Below are positions 1 through 19,564 of a stretch of 24,640 nt of DNA, one piece after another (position 1 is the first letter of the stretch; every line of letters starts with the position of its first letter). The stretch comes from a virus (lineage: Duplodnaviria > Caudoviricetes): positions 1 through 24,640 of the IMG/VR virus record IMGVR_UViG_3300035235_001285; one strand, given 5' to 3'. The notes under the pieces are model-generated. The model had not been told where the DNA came from. It did not search any database and worked only from the letters and a program-made list of their open reading frames with translations. A program made the translations under genes and the position numbers.

Positions 1-12
1 AAATGTAAAGGA
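1..12 (-). promoter_or_regulatory. -35 element (TCCTTTACA) of the next promoter, truncated by the window edge
   Basis: aaatgtaaagga is identical to the -35 block of several other promoters and sits immediately after the stop at 13-15. Confidence 0.55.
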
Positions 13-1068
13 TTAATTCATAAAAGATTCTAATGAAGTAGTACCACCATTATGTAGATGTCTAATAATCTTATCTACGTCATGAGTAGCAATACGTCGT
101 TTACTTATCTTTTCAGGCATTTTAAGCAGATCTGTGTATATACCATATTGGCATAAAGCAACTTCTGCTGTATATGTAGTTAATTCTGTTTGCTCAAATG
201 TATAAACCTTTTGACCAGAAACTTCAATATTGTGCCAGTACTTATCAAAGTGTAGTTTACCAAAGATCTTTTCTTGATTTTCACGTAACCATACAACTCT
301 TTCTCCTGGAGGAGCAATGCTATTTGTAACCTTAGGCATAAGCATTTTAAGAGTTTTCATACATCCTGGGCCAGGTATACAAAATGGCTCATCATGTGTA
401 AATGATATTTTTGGATTTGTTGATTGATCAGTTCCACCATGATAACCATAGTAAGCACCAATGCCTTCTTTAGAACAAAGTATTTCAACACATTCTTTTA
501 AAGTTTTAGAATTAAGTATTCTATCAACAGTACCATCAGTAATCCAACCAGCAAGCCAATGTATCATATTGATAGCGTGTTTATCTCTACCTTGTGATAC
601 TGCATAGTTATTGGCTGCTGATTGTAAAGAAGTGTGTAACTCAGTTTTAGACCAAATACTATACCCAATAGCTTTAGCTTTATCTAAGTTACTTCTTAAG
701 AACTTATTGTAGTCTTCATCATGTAATACACGTTCAAAATCAGTATATGCTTTCTTAGGATCCATTTCAGCATTAAGTACTCTATGGCAATCTCTACCAC
801 CATAAAAGTGAGTAATGACAAAATTCAATACTCTACTAGCATCTGAAATATTTGGATTAGTTGAAAGGTTACTTGCCATATAACGAAGACGATCATCCAT
901 AGTTACATTAGGACCAAAGTATTCAGTCTCAGCTTGTATAGCAATATCATCATTATTAAATGTTTTACTTACACCTGCACGGTAATCAAATCCTTCGATT
1001 ACTCTTGTCCAAAAGTAGTAAATATCTTCTGCTACTGACTTATCAATGTATGGTTCAAGGTTAGCCAT
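13..1068 (-). CDS. aGPT-Pplase / amino acid:DNA transferase-like protein (HhH fold, '5hmdU DNA kinase helical domain' family), putative DNA hypermodification transferase
   Basis: 351-aa ORF with motifs in the order typical of aGPT-Pplase clade 1: N-terminal D.AI...EYF.....DDR, HhH-like GIGAYYGYH..TD, FCIPGPG, and C-terminal EVALCQYGIY (cf. E..LCE..KY). Last gene of a base-modification operon. Confidence 0.62.
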   Translation of the reverse strand: MANLEPYIDKSVAEDIYYFWTRVIEGFDYRAGVSKTFNNDDIAIQAETEYFGPNVTMDDRLRYMASNLSTNPNISDASRVLNFVITHFYGGRDCHRVLNAEMDPKKAYTDFERVLHDEDYNKFLRSNLDKAKAIGYSIWSKTELHTSLQSAANNYAVSQGRDKHAINMIHWLAGWITDGTVDRILNSKTLKECVEILCSKEGIGAYYGYHGGTDQSTNPKISFTHDEPFCIPGPGCMKTLKMLMPKVTNSIAPPGERVVWLRENQEKIFGKLHFDKYWHNIEVSGQKVYTFEQTELTTYTAEVALCQYGIYTDLLKMPEKISKRRIATHDVDKIIRHLHNGGTTSLESFMN

Positions 1069-1487
1069 TAGAACAAATCAAGATCCATTTGATCGGTTTC
1101 ACTAGATTTAAAATAATGTCTTACATTCTCCTTTTCAACTAAGTTATGTTGTAATAGTACTACATTAATATGTGGCATCATTTTACGAATAATCTCAGCT
1201 TGTATAGGATCATCTTCATAATGTATTCCAAATCTCATTCCTGATTGCTCTAGGTAGAAAAGAGTCTGGCCTTTATGGCGGCCAGAACTCTCTCTTGTCT
1301 TTTGATCAAACGGTGTACTATTGTAATATACGTTATTAGTTATACCTTTTGATTTAAGCATAGCTTCTGTTTCAGGTTGCTCTTCTTTAGAACGACCAGT
1401 AATGATAATATCGTTTTTACTAGGATAAACTCCATCGAATTTATCCATAAAAATTACACCATCTATATCAAAAGAGTTTTTAAACAT
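1068..1487 (-). CDS. HAD-superfamily phosphatase (capless type)
   Basis: Motif I FDIDGV, motif II ITGR, Lys in HKG, motif IV YEDD. Start moved to ATG 1487 (GGAG RBS at 1497-1500; overlaps the MIPS stop). Confidence 0.8.
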   Translation of the reverse strand: MFKNSFDIDGVIFMDKFDGVYPSKNDIIITGRSKEEQPETEAMLKSKGITNNVYYNSTPFDQKTRESSGRHKGQTLFYLEQSGMRFGIHYEDDPIQAEIIRKMMPHINVVLLQHNLVEKENVRHYFKSSETDQMDLDLF

Positions 1488-2772
1488 AGTCAGTTTCTCC
1501 TGCTTGGAATGTGTATGCAAGATTTTTAGCCAAAGGTTTGTTGCTAAACAACTGTGGTTCAGTTAGTTTAGTAATTTCTCTTTGAGCTAGCATATCACAC
1601 TCATATTTAGACTCATCGGTCTTAAGCTGAAGAGGTGGTGTTTTCTGAGTCCAAGCAGAAGGACCACGAAGGTAACCTACAATGCCCATTTCAGATGCTA
1701 CCTTACAGAATCGAATAGCTGAAATTACAACACCACCTGAGTTAGGCGAATCTTGTACTTCCATACGAGCTGTAAGAGTATAACGTGCACCAGCAAAACC
1801 ATAAGCAACAATATCAAAGTTAGCAATCTTTTGATCACTACCAATGTAATCACCACCAGGCTTTTGCTGTACAGTAAGCGAAGGACCTGCAAACAAAGTC
1901 ATACCAGCAGTAGATGTATCCCTTACATGGTTTTGACCTTTCAACACGTTTTCTTTAGATACATGCTTATTCTTCAATCGCTCTTGTTTAGCCATATTCA
2001 AAAAGTCTGTATTTGCTGTACGTCCTGTACGAATATGCTCTTGACCTTGAGTAGATCCTGCAGCCATATTTGTTTGAATATGCTGAGTGACCATAAGACC
2101 AGAGTCTAGCATTGCACCTTGAAGTACTTCAGATAAACGAGATGCACCCCAAGCTGATCTCATATCAGAACCTACAATTGTAAGACCTGCATCGATAAAC
2201 TTTTGTTCAATCTTCTTAGTTTCTTTAGTAGAAATAAGAGTTGGAATACAATTCACAAAGTGACATCCAGCTGAAATTGCAGCATCCATATAGAACTCTG
2301 AAGCTCTTTCAGATCCAACTGGTAGATAGTTAATAAGAACATCAACACGTTCTTTAACCAATAGTTCTACAATGTCATCAAAAGAAATATGACTCTGTGC
2401 ACCAGTTCTAAATGATACCTCTTCAGGATACTCTAACATATGTGGTGCAACACCATCATACTCAGGACCTGAATGAACCATTGCTCCTGGTTTAATAGCA
2501 CCATATCCATTTGAAGTATCATCAATTGATGCAACATGGTTCATAGCACAATTAGGATCTGCCCTTAAAGCTTCAGCCAATGGACGGTTTACTTTACGCC
2601 TATCAACATCAAATCCAATTACAAATTCCATATCACCTGACTGATAGCCACCAATATCTTCATACATCAAACCCACTTTATCTTCTGGGTTTTCATTATA
2701 ATATTGAACACCTTCAACCAATGCTTTAGCACAGTTGCCAGTTCCAATAATCCCGACTTTAATTTTTTCCAT
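1480..2772 (-). CDS. ino1: myo-inositol-1-phosphate synthase (bacterial/archaeal Ino1 type)
   Basis: Rossmann motif VGIIGTGNCA, DVLINYLPVGSE, FVNCIP, NTDFLNM, K..SK, DQK, DSPNSGGV and KTPP match Ino1 blocks. AGGAG RBS upstream. Confidence 0.9.
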   Translation of the reverse strand: MEKIKVGIIGTGNCAKALVEGVQYYNENPEDKVGLMYEDIGGYQSGDMEFVIGFDVDRRKVNRPLAEALRADPNCAMNHVASIDDTSNGYGAIKPGAMVHSGPEYDGVAPHMLEYPEEVSFRTGAQSHISFDDIVELLVKERVDVLINYLPVGSERASEFYMDAAISAGCHFVNCIPTLISTKETKKIEQKFIDAGLTIVGSDMRSAWGASRLSEVLQGAMLDSGLMVTQHIQTNMAAGSTQGQEHIRTGRTANTDFLNMAKQERLKNKHVSKENVLKGQNHVRDTSTAGMTLFAGPSLTVQQKPGGDYIGSDQKIANFDIVAYGFAGARYTLTARMEVQDSPNSGGVVISAIRFCKVASEMGIVGYLRGPSAWTQKTPPLQLKTDESKYECDMLAQREITKLTEPQLFSNKPLAKNLAYTFQAGETDYV

Positions 2773-2789
2773 AACTTTCTCCTGTTATA

Positions 2790-3278
2790 TCAGTTTATTT
2801 GAGTGAGTGATTTGACTGGGAGGTCAGAGTAGCTCACATTAGCCTCATCAAACATAAATGAGGATATCGAAGTAGAGTTTTCCCAATGTGGTACCATTTC
2901 TGGATAACACATTACAACTCTAGTTATACCTGTTTGAATAATGCCTTTTGCACATTCATGGCAACAAGGTAAACCATAAATGTAAATAGTAGCATCCTTT
3001 AGTGATACACCATTCCAACTTGCATTGTAAATGGCATTCATTTCAGCATGTACTATATAGTTATACTTAGTTTCTCGATTGTTATATCTCTCCTCTGTAT
3101 CTTTTACACCACGTGGAAATCCATTGTAACCTTGAGCTAGTACTTGACCATTCTCTCCAATAACTACAGCGCCAATTTTCTTAGATGGATCTTTAGACCA
3201 ACTAGAAATTTGACGTGCTAGCTCCATATAGCGTATATCCCATTTATTCGACAAGATGAAAATGCCTTTCATAAACAT
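2790..3278 (-). CDS. cd: dCMP deaminase
   Basis: SKDPS..IGAV, GYNGFPRG, HAEMNAI and PCCHEC zinc motif. True start may be TTG at 3254. Confidence 0.92.
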   Translation of the reverse strand: MFMKGIFILSNKWDIRYMELARQISSWSKDPSKKIGAVVIGENGQVLAQGYNGFPRGVKDTEERYNNRETKYNYIVHAEMNAIYNASWNGVSLKDATIYIYGLPCCHECAKGIIQTGITRVVMCYPEMVPHWENSTSISSFMFDEANVSYSDLPVKSLTQIN

Positions 3279-3903
3279 GTAAGTTTTGTACTTGCCAAGT
3301 GATAAAGCCTGGATTAATACCTAGATCTTGTGATAAAGACTCAAGTACATTTTGTTGCCAAGCATAATCATTCTTATAGCCAAAGACTACATCATTAGAT
3401 CGCATTTGAACTACAGCTTGCAACTCATCGTTACGAACATAATAGGTAACTGCATTAGTACAAATAAAATCATTCTTACCAGCTTCATTGAATTCAACCC
3501 AAATTGAAGGACGTTGGTATATCATTGAAGCTCTACGAGTATCACGGTTTTCTTCTAGTTCCCATAAGACACGTTCATATTGATTGTAAAACTTATCATC
3601 ATAGATAAGATGACCATAGTTAGAATTAATCTCACCATGATCATTTGCTGCATACTGCCAAGCGGCCGGAGCATCTTTATCTGGATGAATATCGTTTACG
3701 TTAGTAGAGCATGAATTGTACCACTCTAACTCGGCTTCAACATAGTCTTGATTAACAGTACCGAAGATCGCCGGTTCATCGGCAAGGAAGGAAGCGCCGA
3801 GAAGCTCAATAGTCTTCTGGCCGGTTCGATCTTCGGTAAAGGCTTCGTCATGTAATTCATCAATGAAGTACTGACGGATATCTGATACAGTATATAATCT
3901 CAT
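3244..3903 (-). CDS. gp42: dCMP hydroxymethylase (T4 gp42-like thymidylate synthase homologue)
   Basis: Closely follows T4 gp42 as recalled: DRTGQKTIELLGASFLADEP.IFG, ELEWY, GEINSNYG, DFICTN (catalytic Cys), MRSNDVVFGYKNDYAWQ (Asp at the dCMP-specificity position), LHVYERHF. Confidence 0.9.
   Translation of the reverse strand: MRLYTVSDIRQYFIDELHDEAFTEDRTGQKTIELLGASFLADEPAIFGTVNQDYVEAELEWYNSCSTNVNDIHPDKDAPAAWQYAANDHGEINSNYGHLIYDDKFYNQYERVLWELEENRDTRRASMIYQRPSIWVEFNEAGKNDFICTNAVTYYVRNDELQAVVQMRSNDVVFGYKNDYAWQQNVLESLSQDLGINPGFITWQVQNLHVYERHFHLVE
3759..3838 (-). other. Predicted structured RNA element (three-way junction) inside the gp42 coding region
   Basis: Perfect 12-bp inverted repeat TACCGAAGATCG (3759-3770) / CGATCTTCGGTA (3827-3838), extended by CCGG/CCGG, enclosing two inner hairpins. 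Confidence 0.6.
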
Positions 3904-4217
3904 TTTTTATCCTTTGATTTGTAGCGATCATCCATTTCAGGATGTTCTTGCATATGTATCATTAAAATCATTAATTGTGTAGTAGCATGGGCAAGGTGAG
4001 ATAGACCAGAGTCTGGATCAATATCTTCACCTGCCCAAAAAGCATTCAAATGACGTTGAATAGAAGAGTATGTACGATTGGCCTGAGTGTTATGACCATC
4101 ATCACGCCAATTGTTATAGCCATACTTTTCAGCACCAAAGCGAAACACTTTAGCAATATCATAAAGCGCTTCAGGTGGGATCAAAGCCATAGGTGGTTTT
4201 TCTTTATCGAATTTCAT
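3900..4217 (-). CDS. dATP/dGTP diphosphohydrolase N-terminal domain family protein (DUF5664-like)
   Basis: KFDKEKPPMALIPPEAL, FGAEKYG.NNWR, RHLNAFWAGEDIDPDSGLSHLAHA signature. ATGA overlap with gp42. Confidence 0.8.
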   Translation of the reverse strand: MKFDKEKPPMALIPPEALYDIAKVFRFGAEKYGYNNWRDDGHNTQANRTYSSIQRHLNAFWAGEDIDPDSGLSHLAHATTQLMILMIHMQEHPEMDDRYKSKDKK

Positions 4218-4410
4218 TTTTACTCCATATTGCTAAAGTAGCTTTACTAGGTACATATACCTCAGTACCAAACCTTTTTGATTTGAAACCATAGTCTTTT
4301 GGAAAAGACTGGCGCGTACGAGAAGACCAGTCACCAGAAGACTTTGGTGATTTGTTAACATTACCATGGCGAGATGGCGCATTGGTGGCTGTATTAAAAG
4401 AGTATGACAT
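4204..4410 (-). CDS. small basic hypothetical protein (68 aa), first gene of the modification operon
   Basis: Strong RBS AAGGAAGGA and a promoter directly upstream; stop overlaps the next gene. Confidence 0.6.
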   Translation of the reverse strand: MSYSFNTATNAPSRHGNVNKSPKSSGDWSSRTRQSFPKDYGFKSKRFGTEVYVPSKATLAIWSKNEIR

Positions 4411-4443
4411 TTGGTTTCCTTCCTTTTATCATTTTATAAGTAT

Positions 4444-4472
4444 ATTATAACACAGTTTATGCGTATTGTAAA
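4444..4472 (-). promoter_or_regulatory. early sigma70-like promoter (TTTACA-N17-TATAAT, extended -10)
   Basis: + strand attata 4444-4449 and tgtaaa 4467-4472, 17-nt spacer, A-tract upstream. Confidence 0.8.
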
Positions 4473-5065
4473 GGACTTTTTTCACTTTTTTGCATTTCTT
4501 TTATGATACCTTCGTTATATACTTGGCACTCACCATCGTATTCAGCCATCTTATGATTATAGTAATGTGACTTATAATTTGAGAATTTAGACTTAGTAAC
4601 ATATTCTCTAAAAGAAGCTGGGTTAATTAACAACCTTGGATAAACTGCAAACCCAGTACCACTTACTACATTAGTAGCAACAACAATATAATCAGGATAA
4701 CCTGCATCATAGTTGCGGATTATCTTATCAACTACATGTGGATTGAATGACCACCAATAAGACTCTAAACTCATCCATTTAATTTCAAAACTGGTATTAC
4801 CTTGTTTGACATCCCAAGCATATGTTTCTCTAATTGTATGATCAAAATCTTGATTGTTTAAATCAGCGTTTGGTAAAGCATTCGCAATTCCAATTTCACA
4901 CGCCATAGAGTTGAACGTATGTCTGTAGATAGTGTCAGAGTTTCGTTTGTCTTTAATTTCATAAGCACGTTTTTGAATTCCTTCATATTGCCATTCAGTA
5001 CGTTTTAAGACACGATCATATTCTACAAATCGTGCGCCGGTTAGATGTGGTTTTAAATTAAGCAT
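4457..5065 (-). CDS. denB: DenB / endonuclease IV-like dC-specific endonuclease (PD-(D/E)xK fold)
   Basis: CEIGIA...RETYAWDV...FEIK and C-terminal VTKSKF..Y align by eye with T4 DenB (AEFFVA...PYTYAWDV...VEVK...VRKSNY). Start moved to ATG 5065, overlapping the upstream stop. Confidence 0.7.
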   Translation of the reverse strand: MLNLKPHLTGARFVEYDRVLKRTEWQYEGIQKRAYEIKDKRNSDTIYRHTFNSMACEIGIANALPNADLNNQDFDHTIRETYAWDVKQGNTSFEIKWMSLESYWWSFNPHVVDKIIRNYDAGYPDYIVVATNVVSGTGFAVYPRLLINPASFREYVTKSKFSNYKSHYYNHKMAEYDGECQVYNEGIIKEMQKSEKSPLQYA

Positions 5066-5990
5066 TTTTATATACAAACTCGATTGCTCGGTCTGCCTCC
5101 TTTTCAAGTGGCCGTGAGTCATACCACTGGCCTGTTTCATTATCAATCTCTTTACAGAGCTCTGCGATCTGGTAAGAAGTAATTGGATAGTTATTACTTA
5201 CTGCATTACCAGCAATAGATACCATAATACGATATAGACCATGATACCATCCTGTTTCGTTAATGGTCTTATATTCTGCCACTAACTTTCTATTTACAAA
5301 TGGACAATCATGATATGATGTCCAATTAATATCTGCTTTATCTGCTGAGTTTTTACGATGCTCAACAATTTGATTTTGTATTTCTTCAGGTAAGCGATCA
5401 AAGAATGTTGCCCCTTGTTTCTTTTCTTGCAATGGATACTTATCAATTAAGGCGTCAGGATCCAGATAACTGCCGTTAGTGTTACTGAATATAAAGTTGT
5501 ATGCACCAGCATATTTGCCTGGGACGTAATACATTCTTGAAAGATCTTTAGTTTGTCGATCTCCGATTGAGTCAAGGAGTGTGTTGAGGGCGTACCAGAA
5601 TTTCTTAATTCTACCTTTTCCAACTCTTCCTTTAAGAGGGAAGACAATTCGAAACTTCGGATGATCACGGGTAGAGCTTGCAGTACTATAACAAACGTAA
5701 TACCAATTACCGTATAGAGAGGCAAGTTCATTTTGTAGGTCTCCTTCAAATTTATGTTCATCAACATCAACTGCAGCCCAGCCAGCCCACTCAATAACAT
5801 TTGCATTTGCACGAGTGGTTTCTGGCATATAGACTGCAGGTGACATCAATGGAGCATCTTTCTTAGATGCAATAGGTCTCTTTGATAATTGATACAGTGA
5901 CTCTTCAAAAGCATCAAAGTTTTTGAATACTAGTCTAGTGTCAGTTCTATTATCATAGATACTTTTAAAAAGTGTAGTCGAGACAACCAT
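5058..5990 (-). CDS. AEP-like primase/primase-polymerase domain protein
   Basis: R...NV...WAAVDVD (DxD), YSTASS...PKFRIVFPL and D...KDLSRMYYVP motifs typical of phage prim-pol domains, plus a helical C-terminal domain. Confidence 0.65.
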   Translation of the reverse strand: MVVSTTLFKSIYDNRTDTRLVFKNFDAFEESLYQLSKRPIASKKDAPLMSPAVYMPETTRANANVIEWAGWAAVDVDEHKFEGDLQNELASLYGNWYYVCYSTASSTRDHPKFRIVFPLKGRVGKGRIKKFWYALNTLLDSIGDRQTKDLSRMYYVPGKYAGAYNFIFSNTNGSYLDPDALIDKYPLQEKKQGATFFDRLPEEIQNQIVEHRKNSADKADINWTSYHDCPFVNRKLVAEYKTINETGWYHGLYRIMVSIAGNAVSNNYPITSYQIAELCKEIDNETGQWYDSRPLEKEADRAIEFVYKNA

Positions 5991-6408: not shown

Positions 6409-6437
6409 ATTATATCACACTTTTGTGTCATTGTAAA
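6409..6437 (-). promoter_or_regulatory. early sigma70-like promoter
   Basis: attata 6409-6414, tgtaaa 6432-6437, 17-nt spacer, TGn extension. Confidence 0.8.
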
Positions 6438-6708
6438 GGAAAACTTTCATAGCTTTTGCAATTACTTTAGGATCTTGTAAAGGTAAGTGAGAACCACCAG
6501 CTCCAGTCCATCCTTCAAACTCTTTATCATAGAATCCTATATTGCATTCATTTGGATTATTATCCTGTAGATCTCTTAATTCATTAGCCCATTCTTGCCA
6601 CTGAAAGTCATCAACAATACAATCATCTTTCTCATAGTAGATATATGAATGAACTAGCATTTGAGATCGCCTTTGGCGTATCTTTTCTTTTATTGTTTGA
6701 TTAACCAA
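6415..6708 (-). CDS. stand-alone protein resembling the N-terminal Ia subdomain of NAD-dependent DNA ligase
   Basis: HSYIYYEKDDCIVDDFQW...ANEL.DLQ resembles the LigA Ia motif (H..YY..d.p.isD.eyD.L..eL). TTG start at 6708 with GGAGG RBS inside the gp43 3' end. Confidence 0.55.
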   Translation of the reverse strand: MVNQTIKEKIRQRRSQMLVHSYIYYEKDDCIVDDFQWQEWANELRDLQDNNPNECNIGFYDKEFEGWTGAGGSHLPLQDPKVIAKAMKVFLYNDTKV

Positions 6709-9256
6709 AGAATGCCTCCAATGTAGCTTGTTCTTCTTGCGACCAGCCAATAGATGTAAGAATAGGTTCAATTGGATCTAGAAAGGTCTTTTGAAACTGT
6801 AACTCATAATCAATGAACTTGTCAAGCTGTAACTCAGGTGGTAAGAAGTCAACAAAAGAGATAACGTTTTCTTTTATTGGGTTTGGCTTCTTAAGATAAC
6901 AGAACTTAACCTTATCACCATTACGAACAGGCTCATACTTATTTGTAAGAGACTTTTCCTTGATAGACTGGTTATGAAGAATAGCACCACGAACATGAAT
7001 AGGTGTACCTTTAGCATAACCTGACTTACGTGTCCACTTATCAATATCACTTACACCACGAGGAAACGCCACTTCATGAGCTGGTAAACTGAAGAAGTGT
7101 TGTTTAAACTGGCGAATAGCATCTTGTGTTTTAGTTTCTGAACCTGTTACAATAACTTTGAAAAGAGCTTTAAGAGCATCACGACATTGAGACGGAGTTG
7201 AAGATTTGATTGCTTCAATACCCATGATCTTAAGTTTAGGTTTAGCATAAGCTACACCTTCATTGTTGTGAACATTTAGAATGTAACGCTTTTTAGCTGT
7301 CCATATACCAATATCAGCAATAGCTTCACGTCCCATTTCCATACGTGGACGAGCACAATCCATTTGATCAAACAGTTTCTTATAAGACTCTTTAATGACA
7401 ACTTCAAAGTTGTCTTGGCAGATCTTATCAAGGAAAGCAACAGGATCTTTTGGCTTAAGCTTATCAACCAATGGACCAAAGTTAACGTATAGCGAATCAG
7501 TATCAATAGCAATAACATAATCTTTGTCTGTGCCAAGTAGCTTATTCATATGATCATTAACAGTGTTTTCAGCAAAACGAATAGCATATTGACCAGACAA
7601 TGTAATAGCTTCAGCCATGGAAATATCGTTATAACGGAACCATTTGTTACCAAGTGCGCCATATAAACTATTCATCATAATCTTAATAGCCATTTGCTGA
7701 TTTTCAAATCGATTCATATCACGTTCAATACGGTAAATATCTTGCTTTTGACTAGGATCAATACCCTGACGTTCTTGTTGAGCGGCAAGCATTTTGTCTT
7801 TAATAATACGACGTTCAGCATAGTAGTCAATAATCAAAGATGGTAGAACACCAATACTATCTTTCTTAAAGTGAACACCATTAGCTGCCATAGAAGTAGA
7901 TTTGTCTGGGTTTTCAGTATTGTAACCACCTAGGCAAGTATCTGGAGTAACACCCATAGTTGTACCTGATACAATAGTTTCAGGTGACATGTTCCACTGA
8001 ACAATAATGTTAGGATACAGTGAATTCAAATCAAAGGACACAACCCAATCATGTAAACCAACTTGTGGAGCTTTAACGTAACCACCAGCAAAACTTGTTT
8101 GATCTTCACCATCAGTTGCACCAGCTTTTATATAGCTAGTGTTACCTGCAATCTTATCAACATTAGGAAATACGTTCTTTTTGGCAAGAGTACGATAGAT
8201 AATAGTATCCCACATCGATGTAGTACCAAATGTATCCATATAGTTAATACCAGCTTTATAGGCAATAGTCATTACCAAAGTAATAAGACCCATCTTATCT
8301 TCAAGGCGATCAACCAATTCAACATCTTTAATATTATAGTCAATAAACTTTTGAAAGTCAGCTTTATACAAACCGTGTAAAGAAGAGTGTTCTTCATAAG
8401 ACAATTTGTTTTCACCAAGTACTACGTGGGAAATATGGTTAAGTGAATATGATTCTTGTGGACCGTATGCATAACCAAACTTCTTAAACATATCCATGTA
8501 ATCAAGTGTAACAATACCATATAACTCATAGGTAGTAAGATCACGACCTTTAAACTTTATAGTACGCTCATTGACATGTTCCCAAGGTGAAAGGCGATTT
8601 GCCTGCCCTTCGCCAAGAACTTTAGTGATACGATTAACCATGTATGGTACATCAAACCCACGTACATTCCAGCCTGTAATTACGTCTGGGCAGTGAGCTG
8701 GTGAATTCCACCACTTAAGGAAGTCAGATAACAAATGCATTTCATTATCCATCTTACGATAAACAACTTCGCAATCTTGCATAATAGACTTTGAGATGTC
8801 ATAATCGCCAAATCCCCAGACAAAGTAGACGTTATCAATATTGTTTTTACAAGCAATAGAGATAATAGGTTGTGCAGCTTGGTCAGGCTCTGGGAAACCA
8901 TTATCAGATTGAACCTCAATATCAATTGAAGTTATGTTAATACGTTCACGATCAAATTCAATTTCATCTTGCCATGTTTCTGCAATATAGGCATTTACAT
9001 AGTTGGTAGAACCATAGATGTTAAAGCTATCAACTTCTTCATATGTTTTTAAGAAGTCACGAGCGTTGCGCATAGTATCAAATAGACGTGGCTCAATTAC
9101 CACACCATCTAAGCTATTAAAGCCAGTTTCAGGCTTTTGAGATTTTACATAAAGCGTAGGCTCGAATTTGATCTTACGCATAACAGGCTGATTGTTTTCA
9201 TAGCCGCGATATAAGAGCTGATTACCGTATCGATTGATAGATGTATAAAATTTCAA
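6701..9256 (-). CDS. gp43: DNA polymerase, family B (T4 gp43)
   Basis: Exo motifs DIEV, GWNV.GFD and YNIKDV; Pol motifs SFDLNSLYP, KIMMNSLYGALG, AIDTDSLY, KKRY. Likely UUG start at 9256, 7 nt after GGAGG. Confidence 0.97.
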   Translation of the reverse strand: MKFYTSINRYGNQLLYRGYENNQPVMRKIKFEPTLYVKSQKPETGFNSLDGVVIEPRLFDTMRNARDFLKTYEEVDSFNIYGSTNYVNAYIAETWQDEIEFDRERINITSIDIEVQSDNGFPEPDQAAQPIISIACKNNIDNVYFVWGFGDYDISKSIMQDCEVVYRKMDNEMHLLSDFLKWWNSPAHCPDVITGWNVRGFDVPYMVNRITKVLGEGQANRLSPWEHVNERTIKFKGRDLTTYELYGIVTLDYMDMFKKFGYAYGPQESYSLNHISHVVLGENKLSYEEHSSLHGLYKADFQKFIDYNIKDVELVDRLEDKMGLITLVMTIAYKAGINYMDTFGTTSMWDTIIYRTLAKKNVFPNVDKIAGNTSYIKAGATDGEDQTSFAGGYVKAPQVGLHDWVVSFDLNSLYPNIIVQWNMSPETIVSGTTMGVTPDTCLGGYNTENPDKSTSMAANGVHFKKDSIGVLPSLIIDYYAERRIIKDKMLAAQQERQGIDPSQKQDIYRIERDMNRFENQQMAIKIMMNSLYGALGNKWFRYNDISMAEAITLSGQYAIRFAENTVNDHMNKLLGTDKDYVIAIDTDSLYVNFGPLVDKLKPKDPVAFLDKICQDNFEVVIKESYKKLFDQMDCARPRMEMGREAIADIGIWTAKKRYILNVHNNEGVAYAKPKLKIMGIEAIKSSTPSQCRDALKALFKVIVTGSETKTQDAIRQFKQHFFSLPAHEVAFPRGVSDIDKWTRKSGYAKGTPIHVRGAILHNQSIKEKSLTNKYEPVRNGDKVKFCYLKKPNPIKENVISFVDFLPPELQLDKFIDYELQFQKTFLDPIEPILTSIGWSQEEQATLEAFFG

Positions 9257-9281
9257 AGTCAAACCTCCATAATGTAAGTAT

Positions 9282-9893: not shown

Positions 9894-10117
9894 TGATAGT
9901 CTCTTAATGTTTTAGCATTAAGCTCAGCCGTAAGTGATTCCACTGTATGGCCTCGATACTCACAAATAAGTTGTTCGGCAATCATACGATTAGCAGACTT
10001 TTGTCGACCAATCATATAACCAATCATCATACTCCTGAGAGTGGCTTTAATCGAATTGAGAAATTTCTCAAGTATTTTCCCTGAGAAGTTCAGGCTCTGT
10101 AGTGCTATTGCTGTCAT
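9890..10117 (-). CDS. 75-aa hypothetical protein in the hsp20 operon
   Basis: GAGG RBS, overlaps the hsp20 3' end by 50 nt, coupled to the next ORF. Confidence 0.6.
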   Translation of the reverse strand: MTAIALQSLNFSGKILEKFLNSIKATLRSMMIGYMIGRQKSANRMIAEQLICEYRGHTVESLTAELNAKTLRDYQ

Positions 10118-10547
10118 TATTACTGTCCTCGTAATTAGAATTGATTTTGATTTTACGAGGTCGCTTCTCTTCAGGTAGGACTACTTCTAACTTTACTGCT
10201 AGTATTCCATCCTTCATGTCTGCACCAGTGACTTCCGTGTATTCGCTAAGGCGATACGATTTGTTGAACTTTCGAGCACTAATCCCTTTGTGTACATACT
10301 CTTCCGGCGATCTCCGAGCTGGACGATCTCCTTTAATAGTAAGCACATGGTCTTCTACAGCGATATCAATATGTTCTTCATTAAAACCAGCAACTGCTAG
10401 CTCTACAATGTAGTTCATATTATCGAGTTTAACGACGTTATGTGGGGGATAAGTATCCTTTGCATGGGCGTGAACTTGTTCTAGCCTATCAAAGATGTGA
10501 TCGAAACCTAAAAATGCGTTTCGTGGATATGCGAAATTACCTGTCAT
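10068..10547 (-). CDS. hsp20: small heat shock protein (Hsp20/IbpA family)
   Basis: FLGFD, YPPHNVVK, ELAVAGF, YVHKGISARKF, DGIL, PEEKRPRKIKI (IxI motif). Confidence 0.95.
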   Translation of the reverse strand: MTGNFAYPRNAFLGFDHIFDRLEQVHAHAKDTYPPHNVVKLDNMNYIVELAVAGFNEEHIDIAVEDHVLTIKGDRPARRSPEEYVHKGISARKFNKSYRLSEYTEVTGADMKDGILAVKLEVVLPEEKRPRKIKINSNYEDSNNDSNSTTEPELLRENT

Positions 10548-14155: not shown

Positions 14156-14839
14156 TTATCCTCCATAGTTAGAAGCCTTTTCCAAAGCGATAAAGTATTC
14201 TACCGCTGTGTTTTCATTAGTCCAACTAGAGATTAGTTTAGACGAAATACGAACATTATAGTCGCCTTGAATAATCTTGAAGTTAGCGATATTAAAGATG
14301 AATCGATATGGGACACTCGCTTGGGGTCCATCGACTGACAGCTCAAAGTTGTTGGCCGTAGCATCTTCCACATCAGTTACCCGAATAGTGATGTGTGCAT
14401 CGCCTGGATTAGCAGTGATGACTACATCGCTAACTCCAAGAGCTGACGCTGCCTTTCGCATTTGGGCGATATTATCGGCAGTCAGCGTAAGTGTAACCTC
14501 AGGGTCCGGCATAGTGATGACCTTTGATGGAGATGTTAAAATGGAAGGATCCGAGAAGTAGTAATTAACTGATTTACGTTCCTGCACAATTTTGACAGAA
14601 TTATAATCAGGTGAGAACTGCAACTCAGGGTCATCAAACATGCCTAGGACTCCGAGGAACTCGTTTAGGTCATAAATACCTAATAGATTGTCGGGGAAAG
14701 TTTCAGCAACTGTGGCGGTAGACATAATGTTTTTTGCCTCGCTCATAGTCTTAATTTCATTTCCACCGTTGAATACGATATTTGAATTGATTGATGCGAA
14801 GTTTTTCAACACATCACGGGTTTCATTAGATAGTTTCAT
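14156..14839 (-). CDS. gp45: DNA polymerase sliding clamp (gp45)
   Basis: MKLS..T..VLKNFASINSNI, GIYDLNEFL, YYFSDPS, YFIALE. Confidence 0.95.
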   Translation of the reverse strand: MKLSNETRDVLKNFASINSNIVFNGGNEIKTMSEAKNIMSTATVAETFPDNLLGIYDLNEFLGVLGMFDDPELQFSPDYNSVKIVQERKSVNYYFSDPSILTSPSKVITMPDPEVTLTLTADNIAQMRKAASALGVSDVVITANPGDAHITIRVTDVEDATANNFELSVDGPQASVPYRFIFNIANFKIIQGDYNVRISSKLISSWTNENTAVEYFIALEKASNYGG

Positions 14840-15216
14840 TATTTAGTATCTCCATTGATTTTCATATTGTAATTAGTATTATATACCATTTGAGGCGAAT
14901 TGTAAACCCCAAAAGTGCATTCAGCCTGACCTTTTTCATAAGGATCTTCTTTATGATCTTCGTCATGTTGATGCAAAGCAATAAGCGCATAGTGTAGGAT
15001 TTTCATAATATCTTTACGGTTTGCACCATCTTTCTTACCATACCTTTGAGCATACTTTAGAACATTACCTAAAGAGAAACCCATACCATGGCCACAGTCA
15101 ATAATGAATTCAGTTGACTGAAATTTATTTTTTGAGTAGTGACCACTGTAAGTTCCATCAATATACTCTTTTAGTTGTTTGATAAGCGAACCTTCGTTAA
15201 ACTTATATTCTACCAT
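14839..15216 (-). CDS. DUF3310-like protein (T7 gp1.7 nucleotide kinase-related family)
   Basis: HYS, F.LGNVLKYAQRYGKK and DIMK..HY signature. Confidence 0.7.
   Translation of the reverse strand: MVEYKFNEGSLIKQLKEYIDGTYSGHYSKNKFQSTEFIIDCGHGMGFSLGNVLKYAQRYGKKDGANRKDIMKILHYALIALHQHDEDHKEDPYEKGQAECTFGVYNSPQMVYNTNYNMKINGDTK
14878..14906 (-). promoter_or_regulatory. sigma70-like promoter for gp45, embedded in the upstream CDS
   Basis: attata 14878-14883, tgtaaac 14901-14907, 17-nt spacer. Confidence 0.7.
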
Positions 15217-16391
15217 TATGTTGATACCTCTTCAATTATTTCGTTAAGTGCATCATGTTGTGCACGTATATCTGTTAGATCTGGTTCGCCATCATTAGTT
15301 GTACCATCCACTTTTTGAAATAGATCAATAAATGCTTCTTTAGTATCTTGATCAAATCTGTTAACACAAAGTTCAATAGCTTTATTTCTATCATTAAAGA
15401 TAGAGTATGTTTGAACAATATGGCAAAGACGTCTTGTAGATACTAGATCATCTACTCCACCATCTTCATATGTCTTACGAATTGTTTCAGACCAAATAGT
15501 AAGTAGGTCAGCAAATTGTTCGTCTTTCTTATTAAACTTATCCATGTGTTTCATTACGATACGCTTTTCAGTACCTGATGTAGGATAAGGTTGTTCCATT
15601 GTAATTGTAAACCTTTCAAGGAAAGCTTCATCAATGATATTGGCTGCTATGAACCTACCATCTTCTGATCCTTTACCTTTAGTGTTTGCAGTAGCCATAA
15701 CGTTAAACCCTGCTTTAGGAGTTACAACTTCACCAGTCTTTTTAATAAGAACAGGCTTACCTTCAAGTACACCTTGAAGACACATGATCTTATTAGAACC
15801 ACGATCAAGTTCATCAATTAAAAGTAATGCACCTTGTTTCATAGCTTTAATAACTGGTCCTTCGGCAAATACTGTTTCGCCACCAACCAAACGGAATCCA
15901 CCAATCAAATCGTCTTCGTCAGTTTCAGGAGTAATTTGAACTCTGATATAATGCTTACCTGCTTTAGCACAAGCTTGCTCAATCATTGTAGTCTTACCAT
16001 TACCTGAAAGGCCGGTGACGTATGTTGGGTAGAAAAGATTAGAGGCAATGATAGCTTTAACATCACTAAAATGACCCCATTGAACAAAATACTTATCTAC
16101 TTCTGGTACAAAAATCTCATCGTTCATAATTGATTGAACGTTAGTTGGCACTATTGATTTCTCCTGGATAGTAGGTTTATTTTGAAAAGGCAAGATTTGA
16201 GCTTGCAAATTATATACGCCATACTTGACTTTAGAACCAAGATCAAAAATCCTGTCTACGTCTTTATGTGCAATACCTATTTGATCAGCTATGATCTTAA
16301 GTTCAGGTTTACGAAACTCAACCCTTGAGGGATAAGTTGCAGCAACCTTTTCGAGCAGAGCTCTTTGTGAGAATGTAAGTTCTTTTTTCAT
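15216..16391 (-). CDS. MoxR-type AAA+ ATPase (phage 'CobS-like')
   Basis: Walker A GLSGNGKT, Walker B LLIDE, ATANTKGKG..DGRF, AFLERF, STRRL. Confidence 0.9.
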   Translation of the reverse strand: MKKELTFSQRALLEKVAATYPSRVEFRKPELKIIADQIGIAHKDVDRIFDLGSKVKYGVYNLQAQILPFQNKPTIQEKSIVPTNVQSIMNDEIFVPEVDKYFVQWGHFSDVKAIIASNLFYPTYVTGLSGNGKTTMIEQACAKAGKHYIRVQITPETDEDDLIGGFRLVGGETVFAEGPVIKAMKQGALLLIDELDRGSNKIMCLQGVLEGKPVLIKKTGEVVTPKAGFNVMATANTKGKGSEDGRFIAANIIDEAFLERFTITMEQPYPTSGTEKRIVMKHMDKFNKKDEQFADLLTIWSETIRKTYEDGGVDDLVSTRRLCHIVQTYSIFNDRNKAIELCVNRFDQDTKEAFIDLFQKVDGTTNDGEPDLTDIRAQHDALNEIIEEVST

Positions 16392-16428
16392 AATATAGTC
16401 TCCATCAATTTTCCATTTTAATAAGTAT

Positions 16429-16487
16429 ATTATATCATACTTTTCAGCAAATGTAAAGGATTATTTTCACTTTCTTTCATTTTATTT
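16429..16487 (-). promoter_or_regulatory. early promoter with UP-element A-tracts
   Basis: attata 16429-16434, tgtaaa 16452-16457. A 23-nt block (16451-16473) is identical to 18761-18783. Confidence 0.8.
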
Positions 16488-16564
16488 TGGTGGTCGCAGA
16501 GAGATTCGAACTCCCGGCCTCTGGTTTCGTAGACCAGCGCTCTATCCAGCTGAGCTATGCGACC
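16488..16564 (-). tRNA. tRNA-Arg (ACG), 77 nt, encoded CCA
   Basis: Complete cloverleaf: GGTCGCA-TA-GCTC AGCTGGATA GAGC-G-CTGGT CTACGAA ACCAG-AGGCC-GGGAG TTCGAAT CTCTC-TGCGACC-A-CCA. Confidence 0.95.
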
Positions 16565-18690
16565 GTCTCGGCGAACTTAACTGCCAATGTCCTATTAGCT
16601 TTCTTTGAACCAGCAAACTTTTTAAATGCTCTAGCTATTTCACCTTTCTTAGCATTATCACGTACTTCAAAATCTTCAGTTGTAGTATCTAATGACTTAC
16701 GATCATTACGAAGTATAAAGTATCTATCGTAACCCAATACATTATCTAATGCAAAGTACTTGTCTTTCATAAACTTTCTACGAGCTAGGTTAGTATCATC
16801 CCATGAAATTTTAGTATTAGCGTTTGATAGAGCATAATTAAAATCATGTCTAGCATTTGCTAAGAAATAACCTGTTATAGATGAGCAATAATGCTTCTTA
16901 AGATTATTAAGTAAAGCTTTTGTTAGCTTAGTATTACTATTAGTTTTTACTAGATTACCCATAATATTGATAGCATATCCTGCACGATTAGAAGAATCTA
17001 TATCTATTTCTTTTTCATGACGTTTAGTGTAAAGTCTACTACCAGCACCATCAGTAAGAAGAACGAAGTTAGTCTTTTGAATATTGTACTTTTTAGTAAA
17101 CTTTTCTATTAAATGAGGCATCGCAATCAAAGCTTCATCCAATGGTGTACCACCCAGCTCTTCAGCTCTTGACTGAGTTGGCCAACATCCATTTTCTAAT
17201 CTATAAGCATTGTTATACATTTGACGAATACATTTATCTTGATCGGCTTTGTTTAATGAAGACGATGCAACAGTAAAGAGTCGAACATCTGTATGATCAA
17301 CATGGCCATAAGGTACTGTCTTTGGATCACCTGCTTCACCACGCCTTGTAGTAAATCCCATGACTTCATACGGAATATTAACCTTACGACAAAACATAGA
17401 AAGTACTACAATTTGCTTTATAACTGAGCTAAGAGTATTATTCATAGATCCAGAATAGTCAACCAACATAAACATACCATGGTTCTTAGCATCTGGAAGG
17501 TTAGTCATGCGCTTAAAAATGTCGTCAGTATATTTGTAAGAATATAGCTTATTAACATCTAGAGAACCAGATCGAGCTGTCTGAGCCCTACTAGATCTCC
17601 ACGCTGCTTTACGCATTTCAAATTCTTTAGACATGATTTGAACAACTTTTTTGTTCTCATTCATAAAATCGGTAAAAGCATCTTCAATCCCAGGACTTCT
17701 ACTATTCCAACGAGGAGTGTGATTAACTTCACTTTCTAGTTTATCTCTAGAAGCTTCAACTTGTCTATAACCTATGATCATATCTTTAAGTTGTGCTTTA
17801 GTAAAGCCATTACATACATCTACCATACGACCATTTTCATCTTGATCTAGTAGCTTATGTTCATTTTCACGGAATGCTTTATCAGTTTGAGAATCATGTT
17901 GATCGTAATCATTACCACCTTCTTCACTTAGCTCTTCTTCGCTTGAGCCATTTTCTTTTTCCTCTTCATCTGAGCTTTCTTGATTTTCAATTGAACCTTT
18001 TTCAATATCATCCATGCTTCTAGATTCAGGATTACTAGTCTCAGGCTTCGTACTAGTTTGTTCCATGTCTTCTTCATTGTGTACTCTTTCCTCTTGATTA
18101 GAGATGGAAGGAGATTGAGCTGGTGTATTTTCTAACGCAAATGCATAAAGCTTTTTACAAGCCTCAAGCACGTCTTCCCAAGTTTCCACTGCAAAGACTT
18201 CATTGACTAGATCCCTTTCAGCAGCTGAAAATTCAACTGTGATGAGTTCACGTAGTTTAGCTTTTAGATTAATTCTATCAATCAAATTTACATAATCAGG
18301 TGTAAGCTCTGGTATTTCATTAACACCAAAGAAATCATCATCATATAATTTTTGATAGCCACGCTTAAAGCATGACACTAAGCCCGGATAACGACGTTGT
18401 ATTAACTTTTCAATTCGAACATCTTCCACAACATTCAGATAGCTACGAGGGCAGCCAGGTATTTCTACCTCTGCGTCGTGCCAACCTTCAGGTGGTGTTT
18501 CTAAAGCGTGACCAACTTCATGTCCGACCAACAGGTCATATACATCCTCAAGGTTAGTCCATAGGGGTAAACCTAGTGTACGCTTTTCAACATCGAAGAA
18601 AGCAGTTCTATAGTTGCCATGAACTATATTAATGTTTTCTTTAGCCAAGAGTTTGGCTAGTATCGATTTTGAGTTATTTACAATCATCAT
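16555..18690 (-). CDS. metallopeptidase-like + vWA (MIDAS) protein, CobT-like partner of the MoxR ATPase
   Basis: HEVGH and NVVEDVRIE at the N-terminus, acidic linker, then VDYSGSM, GGTPL and LTDG vWA motifs. Confidence 0.85.
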   Translation of the reverse strand: MMIVNNSKSILAKLLAKENINIVHGNYRTAFFDVEKRTLGLPLWTNLEDVYDLLVGHEVGHALETPPEGWHDAEVEIPGCPRSYLNVVEDVRIEKLIQRRYPGLVSCFKRGYQKLYDDDFFGVNEIPELTPDYVNLIDRINLKAKLRELITVEFSAAERDLVNEVFAVETWEDVLEACKKLYAFALENTPAQSPSISNQEERVHNEEDMEQTSTKPETSNPESRSMDDIEKGSIENQESSDEEEKENGSSEEELSEEGGNDYDQHDSQTDKAFRENEHKLLDQDENGRMVDVCNGFTKAQLKDMIIGYRQVEASRDKLESEVNHTPRWNSRSPGIEDAFTDFMNENKKVVQIMSKEFEMRKAAWRSSRAQTARSGSLDVNKLYSYKYTDDIFKRMTNLPDAKNHGMFMLVDYSGSMNNTLSSVIKQIVVLSMFCRKVNIPYEVMGFTTRRGEAGDPKTVPYGHVDHTDVRLFTVASSSLNKADQDKCIRQMYNNAYRLENGCWPTQSRAEELGGTPLDEALIAMPHLIEKFTKKYNIQKTNFVLLTDGAGSRLYTKRHEKEIDIDSSNRAGYAINIMGNLVKTNSNTKLTKALLNNLKKHYCSSITGYFLANARHDFNYALSNANTKISWDDTNLARRKFMKDKYFALDNVLGYDRYFILRNDRKSLDTTTEDFEVRDNAKKGEIARAFKKFAGSKKANRTLAVKFAETVA

Positions 18691-18862: not shown

Positions 18863-19564
18863 TTACTTCACGAAGTCTGTTATCATTGGGAATATCGGCT
18901 CTAGTGCTTTTGCTGACGCCTTTGCTACTTCCATGCATTCTTTTTGTGTTCCATTTCCTGATCGTAGGCTAATGAAATGTGCCCATGATCTAAGGGTACC
19001 ATTCATATACATACGAGAAACAGTCATACCTTCGGGTAACACTGCTCTTGCTTGCTCTTTAGCGATACCATTTTCAATAGCCCATTCATAAGCAACTTTT
19101 GCTGCATTAGTTACTGAGTGCTGACGTCTTTGCCAGTCAGTAATTAATTCTTGTTGTTTGGTATTCAACTGAATATTAGGATCACTTTCGATCTCAATTG
19201 AATTCTGTCTATTCTTAGGATCTTGCAATCGCGCTTCACGAGTTACAAATGCTCCTGCCAGTTCTTTATCTGGGTTAGCATACCGTTGTGAAAACTCTTG
19301 AAAAGAGAATGACCGGTGTCTTAGAATTTGTCTTGCAATATCACGAGTTGTTGTAATTTCTAGACAGGCACTTGCCATTTCAAGTGGCGACCAATGGTCG
19401 TTTTTCATTAAATACTTGATAAGCTTATCAGCTGTCTGTTTATTAGTTTGATTGCCTGGATTAGATACACGTGCTGTGTATGCTACTAGGTCTTGTGTGT
19501 CTTCAACTCCTTGAATACGATATTCTTCGGTTGGAACTGAATGACTTACTAATTTTACTTGCAT
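18863..19564 (-). CDS. thyX: flavin-dependent thymidylate synthase
   Basis: ARVS, HWSPLE, RQILRHRSFSFQEFSQRY (RHRx7S), KEQARAVLP, LRSWAHF..LR, TQKE. Confidence 0.95.
   Translation of the reverse strand: MQVKLVSHSVPTEEYRIQGVEDTQDLVAYTARVSNPGNQTNKQTADKLIKYLMKNDHWSPLEMASACLEITTTRDIARQILRHRSFSFQEFSQRYANPDKELAGAFVTREARLQDPKNRQNSIEIESDPNIQLNTKQQELITDWQRRQHSVTNAAKVAYEWAIENGIAKEQARAVLPEGMTVSRMYMNGTLRSWAHFISLRSGNGTQKECMEVAKASAKALEPIFPMITDFVK

Follow-up and report, generated by a model that had tools for sequence, protein, structure and literature searches.

A minus-strand operon in an uncultured T4-like phage (IMG/VR record IMGVR_UViG_3300035235_001285) appears to direct the attachment of a cyclitol to 5-hydroxymethylcytosine (hmC) in DNA. 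The stretch analysed, here called the window, covers 24,640 bases of the phage genome and constitutes the whole available record. The operon encodes a deoxynucleoside triphosphate (dNTP) diphosphohydrolase, a gp42-type dCMP hydroxymethylase, a dCMP deaminase, an inositol-3-phosphate synthase, a small HAD-type phosphatase and an HhH-fold protein of the aGPT-Pplase superfamily, the last of these in the open reading frame (ORF) 13-1068. From the sequences of these proteins and of their relatives we consider it fairly probable that ORF 13-1068 makes a cyclitol ether on hmC. The evidence falls under the modified base, the transferase, the donor genes and the genes that accompany them in other phages.

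The modified base

The gp42 homolog of the window retains D145, C148, D171 and D179, which are all four of the T4 dCMP-hydroxymethylase residues and correspond to those described as diagnostic of the gp42 type (the equivalents of ThyA-143 D, C146, D169 and D177; PMC13326640). By the residue rules given in that paper, this combination indicates dCMP as the substrate and hydroxymethylation as the reaction, as opposed to methylation or to hydroxylation by enzymes of the D169N type. Two other assignments, dUMP hydroxymethylase and 5-hydroxy-dCMP synthase, were ruled out by D179 and D171, respectively. A single thymidylate-synthase-family match, again with these three acidic residues, was obtained in the complete relative G003 and in each of the records G001 and G004, and D was found at both the 169 and the 177 positions in 83 of the 101 thymidylate-synthase-like ORFs of the collected loci, counted without dereplication. 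The slot of the PF18909 dNTPase is taken in relatives by other small families (DUF1599, DUF6378 and MazG). With gp42 residues as in T4, the phage likely replaces cytosine with hmC, which upholds the base named in an initial annotation of this sequence.

ORF 13-1068 as a candidate transferase

The initial annotation described ORF 13-1068 as an aGPT-Pplase/AADT-like protein. Profile and structure checks confirmed the HhH/aGPT-Pplase fold and a Cys/Glu motif, but placed the protein in PF18723 (HMUDK_hel, aGPT-Pplase clade 1), with a score above the Pfam cut-off, and not in the AADT family PF18724 (clade 2), which gave no match at E≤0.1; PF18747 and PF18748 gave no match either. In a phylogenetic tree, the HhH family was separated as a distinct branch from RP13 ORF120 and phiMAM1 gp083 (100/100), and its profile missed the AADT of phage Cr30, gp123 (E 0.61). 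The structure model of ORF 13-1068 (predicted local distance difference test score 93) is almost entirely helical. Its top structural match was the PaMx11 glycinyltransferase gp46 (8z2m; Z 9.5, rmsd 4.1, 227 residues aligned), for which Foldseek gave a prob of 0.92 but an E of only 0.17, and the lower-ranked matches were a series of HhH glycosylases. A sequence search of the PDB with the HhH and chimera profiles (the chimera is described below) returned nothing usable.

The motif E302-x3-C306 was invariant in 24/24 aligned phmmer homologs (24 of the 28 matches aligned) and was present, partly through the search pattern, in 168/168 HhH copies of the collected loci. Its likeness to the PaMx11 enzyme, in which Glu243 is a metal ligand and Cys247 the nucleophile (PMC11472151), is one of spacing. 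The protein ends in a polymerase-like clamp tail, SLESFMN. A function as a kinase, suggested by the Pfam name (kinase helical domain), was rejected: the demonstrated kinases are P-loop proteins, whereas the transferases with demonstrated activity belong to clade 2 (PMC8989533, Table 1), and ORF 13-1068 has no P-loop and is nearly all helical, so that the name of the family does not make it a kinase. Taken together, sequence and model suggest that ORF 13-1068 probably works like an AADT, while lying outside the AADT family.

Donor genes

The synthase matched Ino1 of M. tuberculosis with an E of 1e-49 and retained most of the active-site segments. The Ino1 motif GDDIKS reads GSDMRS in the window protein, which also has a 15-residue insertion and is without a clamp-type tail. 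Its TIGR03450 score was 208 against a cut-off of 638, and a synthase that makes a five-membered cyclitol (6k96) matched it at E 7e-27. The HAD ORF contains DIDGV, TGRS and EDD, that is, the DxD motif I, the S/T motif II and the acidic motif IV, while its profile support was weak (no relevant Pfam match; a relative matched Acid_phosphat_B at E 0.0036).

The synthase was found in 19 phage records. In the three cultured phages inspected (RP13, Cr30 and Mendera), the HAD gene adjoins the synthase gene among DNA-modification genes, and the chimera is absent. The initial annotation held that an occurrence of ino1 independent of gp42 and the transferase would speak against the pathway, and such an occurrence was found in part, as the synthase-HAD pair is present without gp42 in cultured phages. 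Since the pair still lies inside other DNA-modification clusters in the three phages inspected, a portable donor module is favoured.

Each of these phages provides an observation of its own. Stenotrophomonas phage Mendera carries the synthase and HAD genes within a cluster of folE, QueC and QueE-like genes (L162:8098-13624), with no thymidylate-synthase-family gene found in its genome, and is a candidate for a cyclitol-bearing 7-deazaguanine. In Ralstonia phage RP13 (L161:2811-14538, L178:1156-2202), the pair lies close to genes of the AADT-like, clade-1 and HMUD2 kinase types; the thymidylate-synthase homolog resembles a dUMP hydroxymethylase by eye, and an inositol-thymine formed by the kinase route is a candidate there. 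Caulobacter phage Cr30 (L163:5901-11257) has one run of genes for a dNTP pyrophosphohydrolase, an AADT (PF18724 E 1e-52), a TAGT-like protein, the synthase and the HAD protein, and the only thymidylate-synthase match in its genome is of the canonical type.

Conservation of the gene cluster

To the best 80 viral loci (of 180 confirmed) with an HhH homolog we added the best 80 metagenome loci (of 224 confirmed), giving 160, and linkage was counted in the 60 loci flanked by over 4 kb in both directions, which formed 28 clusters at 90% identity. The synthase was found in 27 clusters, the HAD protein in 27 and the chimera in 26, followed by an FkbM methyltransferase (15), a nearby thymidylate synthase of the gp42 type or another (13) and a C5-methyltransferase-like gene (8). 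The proposed linkage of synthase, phosphatase and HhH protein was thus borne out in 27/28 clusters across distant phages, which have shuffled gene orders and widely differing backgrounds.

This pattern bears on an explanation in which the inositol genes are only neighbours that serve metabolism or the surface of the virion or host, while ORF 13-1068 binds DNA or acts in the manner of a glycosylase and the modified base is hmC or acyl-hmC. The fold of ORF 13-1068 indeed matches DNA glycosylases and the queuine salvage hydrolase too, sugar-nucleotide genes lie near some loci, and the HhH gene stands alone in L107. Such an explanation is nevertheless very unlikely in view of the near-constant linkage among phages that differ in gene order and are unrelated in background, the presence of the synthase-HAD pair in DNA-modification clusters of three cultured phages, and the fusion of FkbM to HhH in L155 and L151.

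The FkbM-HhH fusion (L155:711-2606, L151:1331-4276) measures 631 aa, and in the 981-aa ORF a further stretch at the C-terminus is probably the chimera. The lone HhH homolog (L107:7980-9020) lies on a bacterial-looking contig, with an integrase-like ORF adjoining by eye. In some relatives, optional glycosyltransferase-like genes (BGT-like, GT4 and TAGT) are inserted into the cluster (L013:6299-7321, L037:8031-9236, L130:2713-3975, L116:6459-7310 and L246:780-1619); they suggest extra decoration.

Tails at the C-terminus that resemble the polymerase sequence LEAFFG were then compared among the encoded proteins, using a pattern defined after the tails had been inspected. In T4, such C-terminal tails bind the sliding clamp. 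Among distinct tails, the pattern was found in 40/42 for the chimera, 24/35 for the HhH protein and 24/26 for the C5-methyltransferase-like protein, as against 0/20 for the synthase, 0/35 for the HAD protein, 0/19 for gp42 and 7/332 for other ORFs. The clamp tails sort the cluster into DNA-acting and metabolite-making enzymes.

A chimeric protein where a DNA kinase was expected

The window ends directly after ORF 13-1068, but a relative locus, L001, which encodes a protein 100% identical to it, contains the adjoining genes. The gene directly left of the window encodes a 343-residue chimera (L001:9098-10129) and is followed by a C5-methyltransferase-like gene (L001:10126-11319) and then by UvsX. 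The cluster thus occupies the position between gene 42 and uvsX, which is the slot of the beta-glucosyltransferase (BGT) gene of T4. Residues 2-96 of the chimera align with residues 1-97 of T4 BGT (P 77%, E 2e-5; Foldseek 1j39 E 3e-4), and residues 145-330 form an SGNH domain (Foldseek E 7.7e-6; Z 14.8, rmsd 2.6, 168 residues aligned). Only the former segment aligns with BGT and the C-terminal half is SGNH, so that the two-domain GT-B architecture of T4 BGT, including its sugar-nucleotide domain, is not present. G155-D-S157-H and H320 were invariant and N204 near-invariant in 30 sequences, and distinct full-length chimeras contained GDSH in 142/142 cases and the His motif in 141/142. The usual Asp of D-x-x-H is missing, and the invariant E314 is a candidate replacement. 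The chimera motif was matched by about 980 stretches in IMG/VR, and 573 of the 600 that were scanned were confirmed as relatives. A distant homolog lies between the ribonucleotide reductase genes of Tenacibaculum phage PTm1 (L260:7968-8987), in whose genome no HhH match was found.

The neighbouring C5-methyltransferase-like family (L001:10126-11319) has a degenerate first motif (PLIGG), an intact PC motif and a clamp-type tail, and its PDB matches were M.HaeIII chains only. It is present in 19/20 chimera clusters (marine clade) but in only 8/28 HhH clusters, for which reason it was rejected as the core transferase. Identity with CmoX was also rejected, because 8/8 representatives have CPCAG instead of SPPC.

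The initial annotation had expected a 5hm-pyrimidine DNA kinase just left of the window, where the chimera and the C5-methyltransferase-like gene were found instead. PF18747 was detected in 0/5 related records, in a search that had no positive control, and was absent from Aeromonas phage 44RR2.8t, in a search that detected the RP13 positive control. PF18748 was absent from the complete G003 genome and from 44RR2.8t, with the phiMAM1 control found at E 9e-118. A tblastn search with both control kinases against 276 loci and the window gave self matches only at E≤1, and neither family was found in a Pfam scan of G003 that covered 103/190 ORFs, core replication and structural ORFs being excluded. 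No known 5-HMUDK family was thus found with the clade-1 cluster, the genome of the window itself being represented by a 24.6 kb fragment.

These results concern the route first suggested for this operon, in which a DNA kinase, divergent or encoded elsewhere in the genome, phosphorylates hmC and ORF 13-1068 swaps the phosphate for inositol. It would use the sole chemistry demonstrated for the superfamily in the published accounts cited here, RP13 holds synthase, HAD, HMUD2 kinase and aGPT-Pplase genes, and the fragment is short enough to leave room for such a gene. We regard it as highly improbable, given that no known 5-HMUDK family was found in complete G003, in 44RR or in the 276 loci with working controls, and that RP13 has the kinase but no chimera (in a search without positive control, RP13 being also outside the 43 chimera-match records), which is the reverse of the window family.

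A survey anchored on the chimera (best 80 of the 573 confirmed relatives; 25 with long flanks, forming 20 clusters) showed that 16/20 clusters carry the synthase, HAD and HhH genes, while 4/20 swap in two other aGPT-Pplase-like proteins and a pyridoxal-phosphate (PLP)-type enzyme (phrog_7093 E 6e-34). The chimera is therefore constant while the donor kit changes. The swapped proteins were placed with the PF18723/PF18724 clusters by Atlas (0.97), the sole basis of their family assignment; they were missed by Pfam, and hhalign against the HhH family gave P 0.3% and 0.07%, with thin alignments. In the tree, the chimeras of the swap cassettes nest within the chimera clade of the window. The cassette itself (L212:3696-6791, also L204, L205, L217-L221 and L256), located between gp42/dCMP deaminase and the chimera and with the PLP-type enzyme flanked by the two aGPT-Pplase-like proteins, is a candidate for an amino-acid-derived cytosine modification.

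Cultured Aeromonas phages

Aeromonas phages 44RR, 31 and 25 carry gene 42 but no T4-type glucosyltransferase, and the modification of 44RR was described as unknown in 2010 (PMC2993671). In phages 44RR2.8t and 31, we found the chimera and the HhH domain in one ORF, 233c (phrog_17781), the fusion being supported by a match at E 4.7e-65. The HhH domain of 44RR groups with the synthase-linked HhH proteins (96/91, on a long branch), and 44RR2.8t also has gp42 with the same residue signature, gp56 and denB. Directly before ORF233c lies ORF234c, which encodes a vSGLT-type Na+/sugar symporter (E 3e-103; both ORFs at L258:7405-11385). The symporter and the long HhH match occur in one and the same set of 19 Aeromonas records, and the synthase was found in none of the Aeromonas records. 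An importer in the place of the synthase and phosphatase speaks independently for a nucleophile that is a free polyol, although it does not name inositol.

The nearest bacterial kin of the 44RR symporter share 48% identity with it, and both bacterial loci that were found are sugar-use clusters, with FGGY kinase, fucose-isomerase-like, MFS, PTS and glycosidase genes and with no inositol genes. The symporter was therefore not supported as an inositol carrier. Phage 25, phiAS4 and IME13 have homologs of a locus of Aeromonas phage AS-gz, a Tulanevirus (L259:4780-8044), in which a UDP-galactopyranose mutase gene and a glycosyltransferase-like gene accompany the chimera and which is a candidate galactofuranosyl-hmC system. 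Erwinia phage FBB1 has the glycosyltransferase-like protein of this locus (69%) and was not among the chimera matches.

Proposed route and alternatives

The following route would account for these genes. The gp42-type enzyme, so classified by its residues, would make hm-dCMP, and the PF18909 enzyme would remove dCTP, so that hm-dCTP replaces it. Inositol would be formed from glucose 6-phosphate through cyclisation by the Ino1-type synthase and release by the HAD enzyme; here the families are seen and the products predicted. Riding on the sliding clamp, the chimera would bind hmC through its BGT N-domain, and its Ser157 would pass an acyl group, probably acetyl, to the CH2OH group, turning it into a leaving group. 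Cys306 of ORF 13-1068 would then add to C6, the carboxylate would be expelled and an exocyclic methylene formed, which a hydroxyl of inositol would attack as serine does with the AADT enzymes of ViI. The predicted product is 5-(inositol-O-methyl)-dC, with the mass of glucosyl-hmdC, and the optional FkbM methyltransferase of relatives might O-methylate the ring. The whole route, including activation by O-acylation instead of phosphorylation, is put forward tentatively. Acylation is suggested because the superfamily needs a leaving group and the chimera occurs in phages in which no known kinase was found but is missing from RP13, which has one, and because the chimera persists through the change of donor kit and is fused to the transferase in 44RR. 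Still more speculatively, these phages may form a kinase-free branch in which the chimera O-acylates hmC and clade-1 aGPT-Pplases install interchangeable nucleophiles, namely home-made inositol in the window, an imported sugar in 44RR2.8t and amino-acid-type groups in the swap cassette.

Several observations weigh against the cyclitol ether or its acyl activation. The fold match of ORF 13-1068 is modest, since its Z of 9.5 is tied within 1 with that of the queuine salvage hydrolase (8.9), and helical models commonly attain such values. Clade 1 has no demonstrated activity, and no role is assigned to ViI gp160 and M6 gp55 in the published accounts cited here. The synthase is altered in a conserved motif, and its family includes the five-membered-cyclitol synthase 6k96. 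One of the 28 HhH clusters (L107/L108) is without any partner, and the sugar-cluster setting of the symporter kin means that 44RR may attach another sugar. In the chimera family, the column of BGT Asp100 is D in 8/30 sequences and D or E in 20/30, and neither a donor of the acyl group nor a partner that would load it was found. Finally, the genome of Tulanevirus AS-gz has no HhH partner for its chimera, whose neighbours are the UDP-galactopyranose mutase and the glycosyltransferase-like gene. Since glycosyltransferases act on hmC without any leaving group, the chimera may have a role in tailoring. In the tree, its sister is the chimera of 44RR, which occupies the corresponding locus (100/100), and AS-gz may alternatively have kept the gene as a leftover.

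This last point leads to an alternative in which the same inositol ether is formed by direct displacement of water by the HhH enzyme, and the chimera O-acylates or de-acylates the attached polyol afterwards. We consider it rather unlikely, but several points speak for it. C5-methyltransferases are known for Cys-mediated addition of nucleophiles to unactivated hmC, many SGNH relatives (PatB, OatA and carbohydrate esterases) act on sugar hydroxyls, and in Tulanevirus the chimera accompanies a plain glycosyltransferase kit without HhH. The last step in PaMx11 is likewise an acetyltransferase (PMC8989533). Against tailoring, the aGPT-Pplase2 enzymes characterised in the cited work require prior phosphorylation, and the chimera is near-obligate (26/28), is fused to HhH in 44RR and is retained across polyol and PLP-type donor kits, whereas likely tailoring genes are patchy (FkbM, 15/28).

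The donor and the linkage could also differ, hmC being decorated with another cyclitol, with a cyclitol phosphate, through an ester or at the nucleotide level. The altered synthase motif, the five-membered-cyclitol homolog and the TIGR03450 score below the cut-off are compatible with this, the HAD protein and the 44RR importer may act on other substrates, and a thymidylate-kinase-like gene adjoins gp42 in G003 (E 0.0018), as in clusters for nucleotide-level arabinosylation. However, Ino1 is closer to the synthase than the five-ring enzyme by 22 orders of magnitude, clamp-type tails put both partner enzymes on DNA, and a free-sugar importer in 44RR suits an unphosphorylated nucleophile. Such a product is unlikely, and we retain an ether of an inositol-type cyclitol on hmC as the preferred reading.

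Organisation of the locus

All six named genes were confirmed on the minus strand at the coordinates initially given (Table 1), and the tight coupling claimed for them was evident from overlaps and near-adjacent starts and stops. The dNTP diphosphohydrolase and gp42-like genes overlap by 4 nt (3900-3903), a gap of 17 nt separates the synthase gene from the gene before it, the synthase and HAD genes overlap by 8 nt (1480-1487), and the HAD gene and ORF 13-1068 share 1 nt (TAATG at 1068). The list of genes, correct for these six, had omitted a small ORF between the promoter and the first of them. Of the two promoters proposed to bound the operon, the one at 4444-4472 does head it. The other is present in the window as a -35 box, whereas in L001 its motif, TTTACA-17 nt-TATAAT, is complete and aims at the chimera gene; as it reads into two further genes there, positions 1-12 are part of an internal promoter and not the end of the cluster. 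The gene cluster extends beyond the edge of the window. Positions 1-5200 contain 18 sigma70-like sites, compared with 21.3 +/- 4.1 in shuffled sequences, and in the absence of an excess only the promoter at 4472-4444 stands out.

Table 1. Predicted features of the modification locus in the window
Feature	Coordinates	Strand	Evidence
Weak DenB/endonuclease IV-like ORF, upstream of the operon	4457..5092	-	phrog_1360 E 3.3e-5
Sigma70-like promoter TTTACA-17-TATAAT, operon head	4444..4472	-	11/12 consensus, best of 18 sites
68-aa ORF between promoter and first named gene	4204..4410	-	no relevant Pfam/PHROG match
dNTP diphosphohydrolase, putative dCTPase	3900..4217	-	PF18909 E 1.8e-31
gp42-type dCMP hydroxymethylase	3244..3903	-	T4 dCMP hydroxymethylase E 6e-66; 50% identity
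dCMP deaminase	2790..3254	-	PF00383 E 2e-22; putative TTG start at 3254, frame open to 3278
Inositol-3-phosphate synthase (Ino1-type), predicted cyclitol-phosphate synthase	1480..2772	-	PF01658 35.1 bits, cut-off 27
Small HAD-type phosphatase, predicted to release free cyclitol	1068..1487	-	sequence motifs; phrog_415 E 3.4e-6
HhH-fold aGPT-Pplase clade-1-like protein, predicted cyclitol:DNA transferase	13..1068	-	PF18723 51.6 bits, cut-off 25
Second promoter, -35 box only (TTTACA)	1..12	-	remainder beyond the window edge

The polymerase gene (6701-9262), a primase-like gene and the weak DenB-like ORF precede the head promoter and the minus-strand gene run. In T4 relatives, denB has the distribution of gene 42 (PMC2993671), and we take its presence as supporting context only. 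No glucosyltransferase was seen among the ORFs of the window, 12 of which were scanned against Pfam and PHROGs, in agreement with the initial annotation.

Relation to known systems

The closest chemistry is that of thymidine hypermodification by 5-HMUDK and aGPT-Pplase2/AADT enzymes in M6, ViI, PaMx11, PhiW-14 and SH-Ab 15599 (PMC8989533, PMC11472151, PMC13458397), with which the window shares the HhH-type fold, the Glu-x3-Cys motif and the logic of a small nucleophile; in ViI, a hydroxyl nucleophile, serine, is already used to form an ether (PMC8989533). The window differs in that the base is cytosine (gp42 D179), the transferase belongs to clade 1 (PF18723), no P-loop kinase was found, the predicted donor is a phage-made or imported polyol and the partner is the SGNH chimera. 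With the glucosylation of hmC in T4 (gp42, gp56 and BGT), it has in common the key residues of gp42, the slot between gene 42 and uvsX, and the BGT N-domain of the chimera, whereas an SGNH domain replaces the C-terminal domain of BGT, no nucleotide-sugar donor is involved and an ether without a glycosidic bond is predicted.

The arabinosyl-5-hydroxycytosine pathway of RB69 and DLP3 (PMC13326640) also has a donor pathway of its own and a small HAD-type phosphatase beside a thymidylate-synthase homolog; its synthases, however, have D169N (D171 in the window), and it uses glycosyltransferases and nucleoside diphosphate sugars. The CmoX carboxymethylcytosine pathway (PMC12783734) likewise includes a C5-methyltransferase-like gene in a cytosine hypermodification cluster, but the window family has CPCAG, not SPPC, and neither CmoA nor a ligase was found among the scanned neighbours. 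ORF233c and ORF234c of the cultured Aeromonas phages 44RR2.8t and 31 are also close. ORF233c joins true homologs of the two DNA-acting proteins, gp42 has the same signature, and the search of 44RR for a 5-HMUDK was negative; the Na+/sugar symporter replaces the synthase and HAD protein, and the donor may be another sugar.

A literature search, mostly of open papers and in the main text only, yielded no description of an inositol-bearing base or of a BGT-N/SGNH chimera. The components come from known systems (hmC of T4 and AADT chemistry); the base is predicted to be new, and the activation step is possibly so. If correct, the pathway would yield the first DNA base to carry a cyclitol, the carbocycle being held by an ether bond, and this would apply to hundreds of environmental phage contigs; it would also give aGPT-Pplase clade 1 its first function and hydroxymethylpyrimidines a new activation chemistry. 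Because the predicted base has the same mass as glucosyl-hmC, a survey by mass alone would assign it wrongly, and it might go unrecognised by defences directed at glucose. The prediction also offers a testable answer to a question from PMC2993671, namely how the hmC of Aeromonas phages 44RR, 31 and 25 is modified; as cultured 44RR2.8t carries the fused DNA-acting enzymes, the predicted chemistry is open to experiment.

Five other regions of the window (6415-6771, 10068-10547, 14839-15216, 15216-18690 and 18863-19564) drew attention. They include a stand-alone NAD-ligase N-terminal-like domain (PF22745) and a DUF3310 protein. By eye, one further product looks like a small heat-shock protein, another like an AAA ATPase accompanied by a partner of the vWA type, and a third like a thymidylate synthase of the ThyX type, which would supply dTMP.

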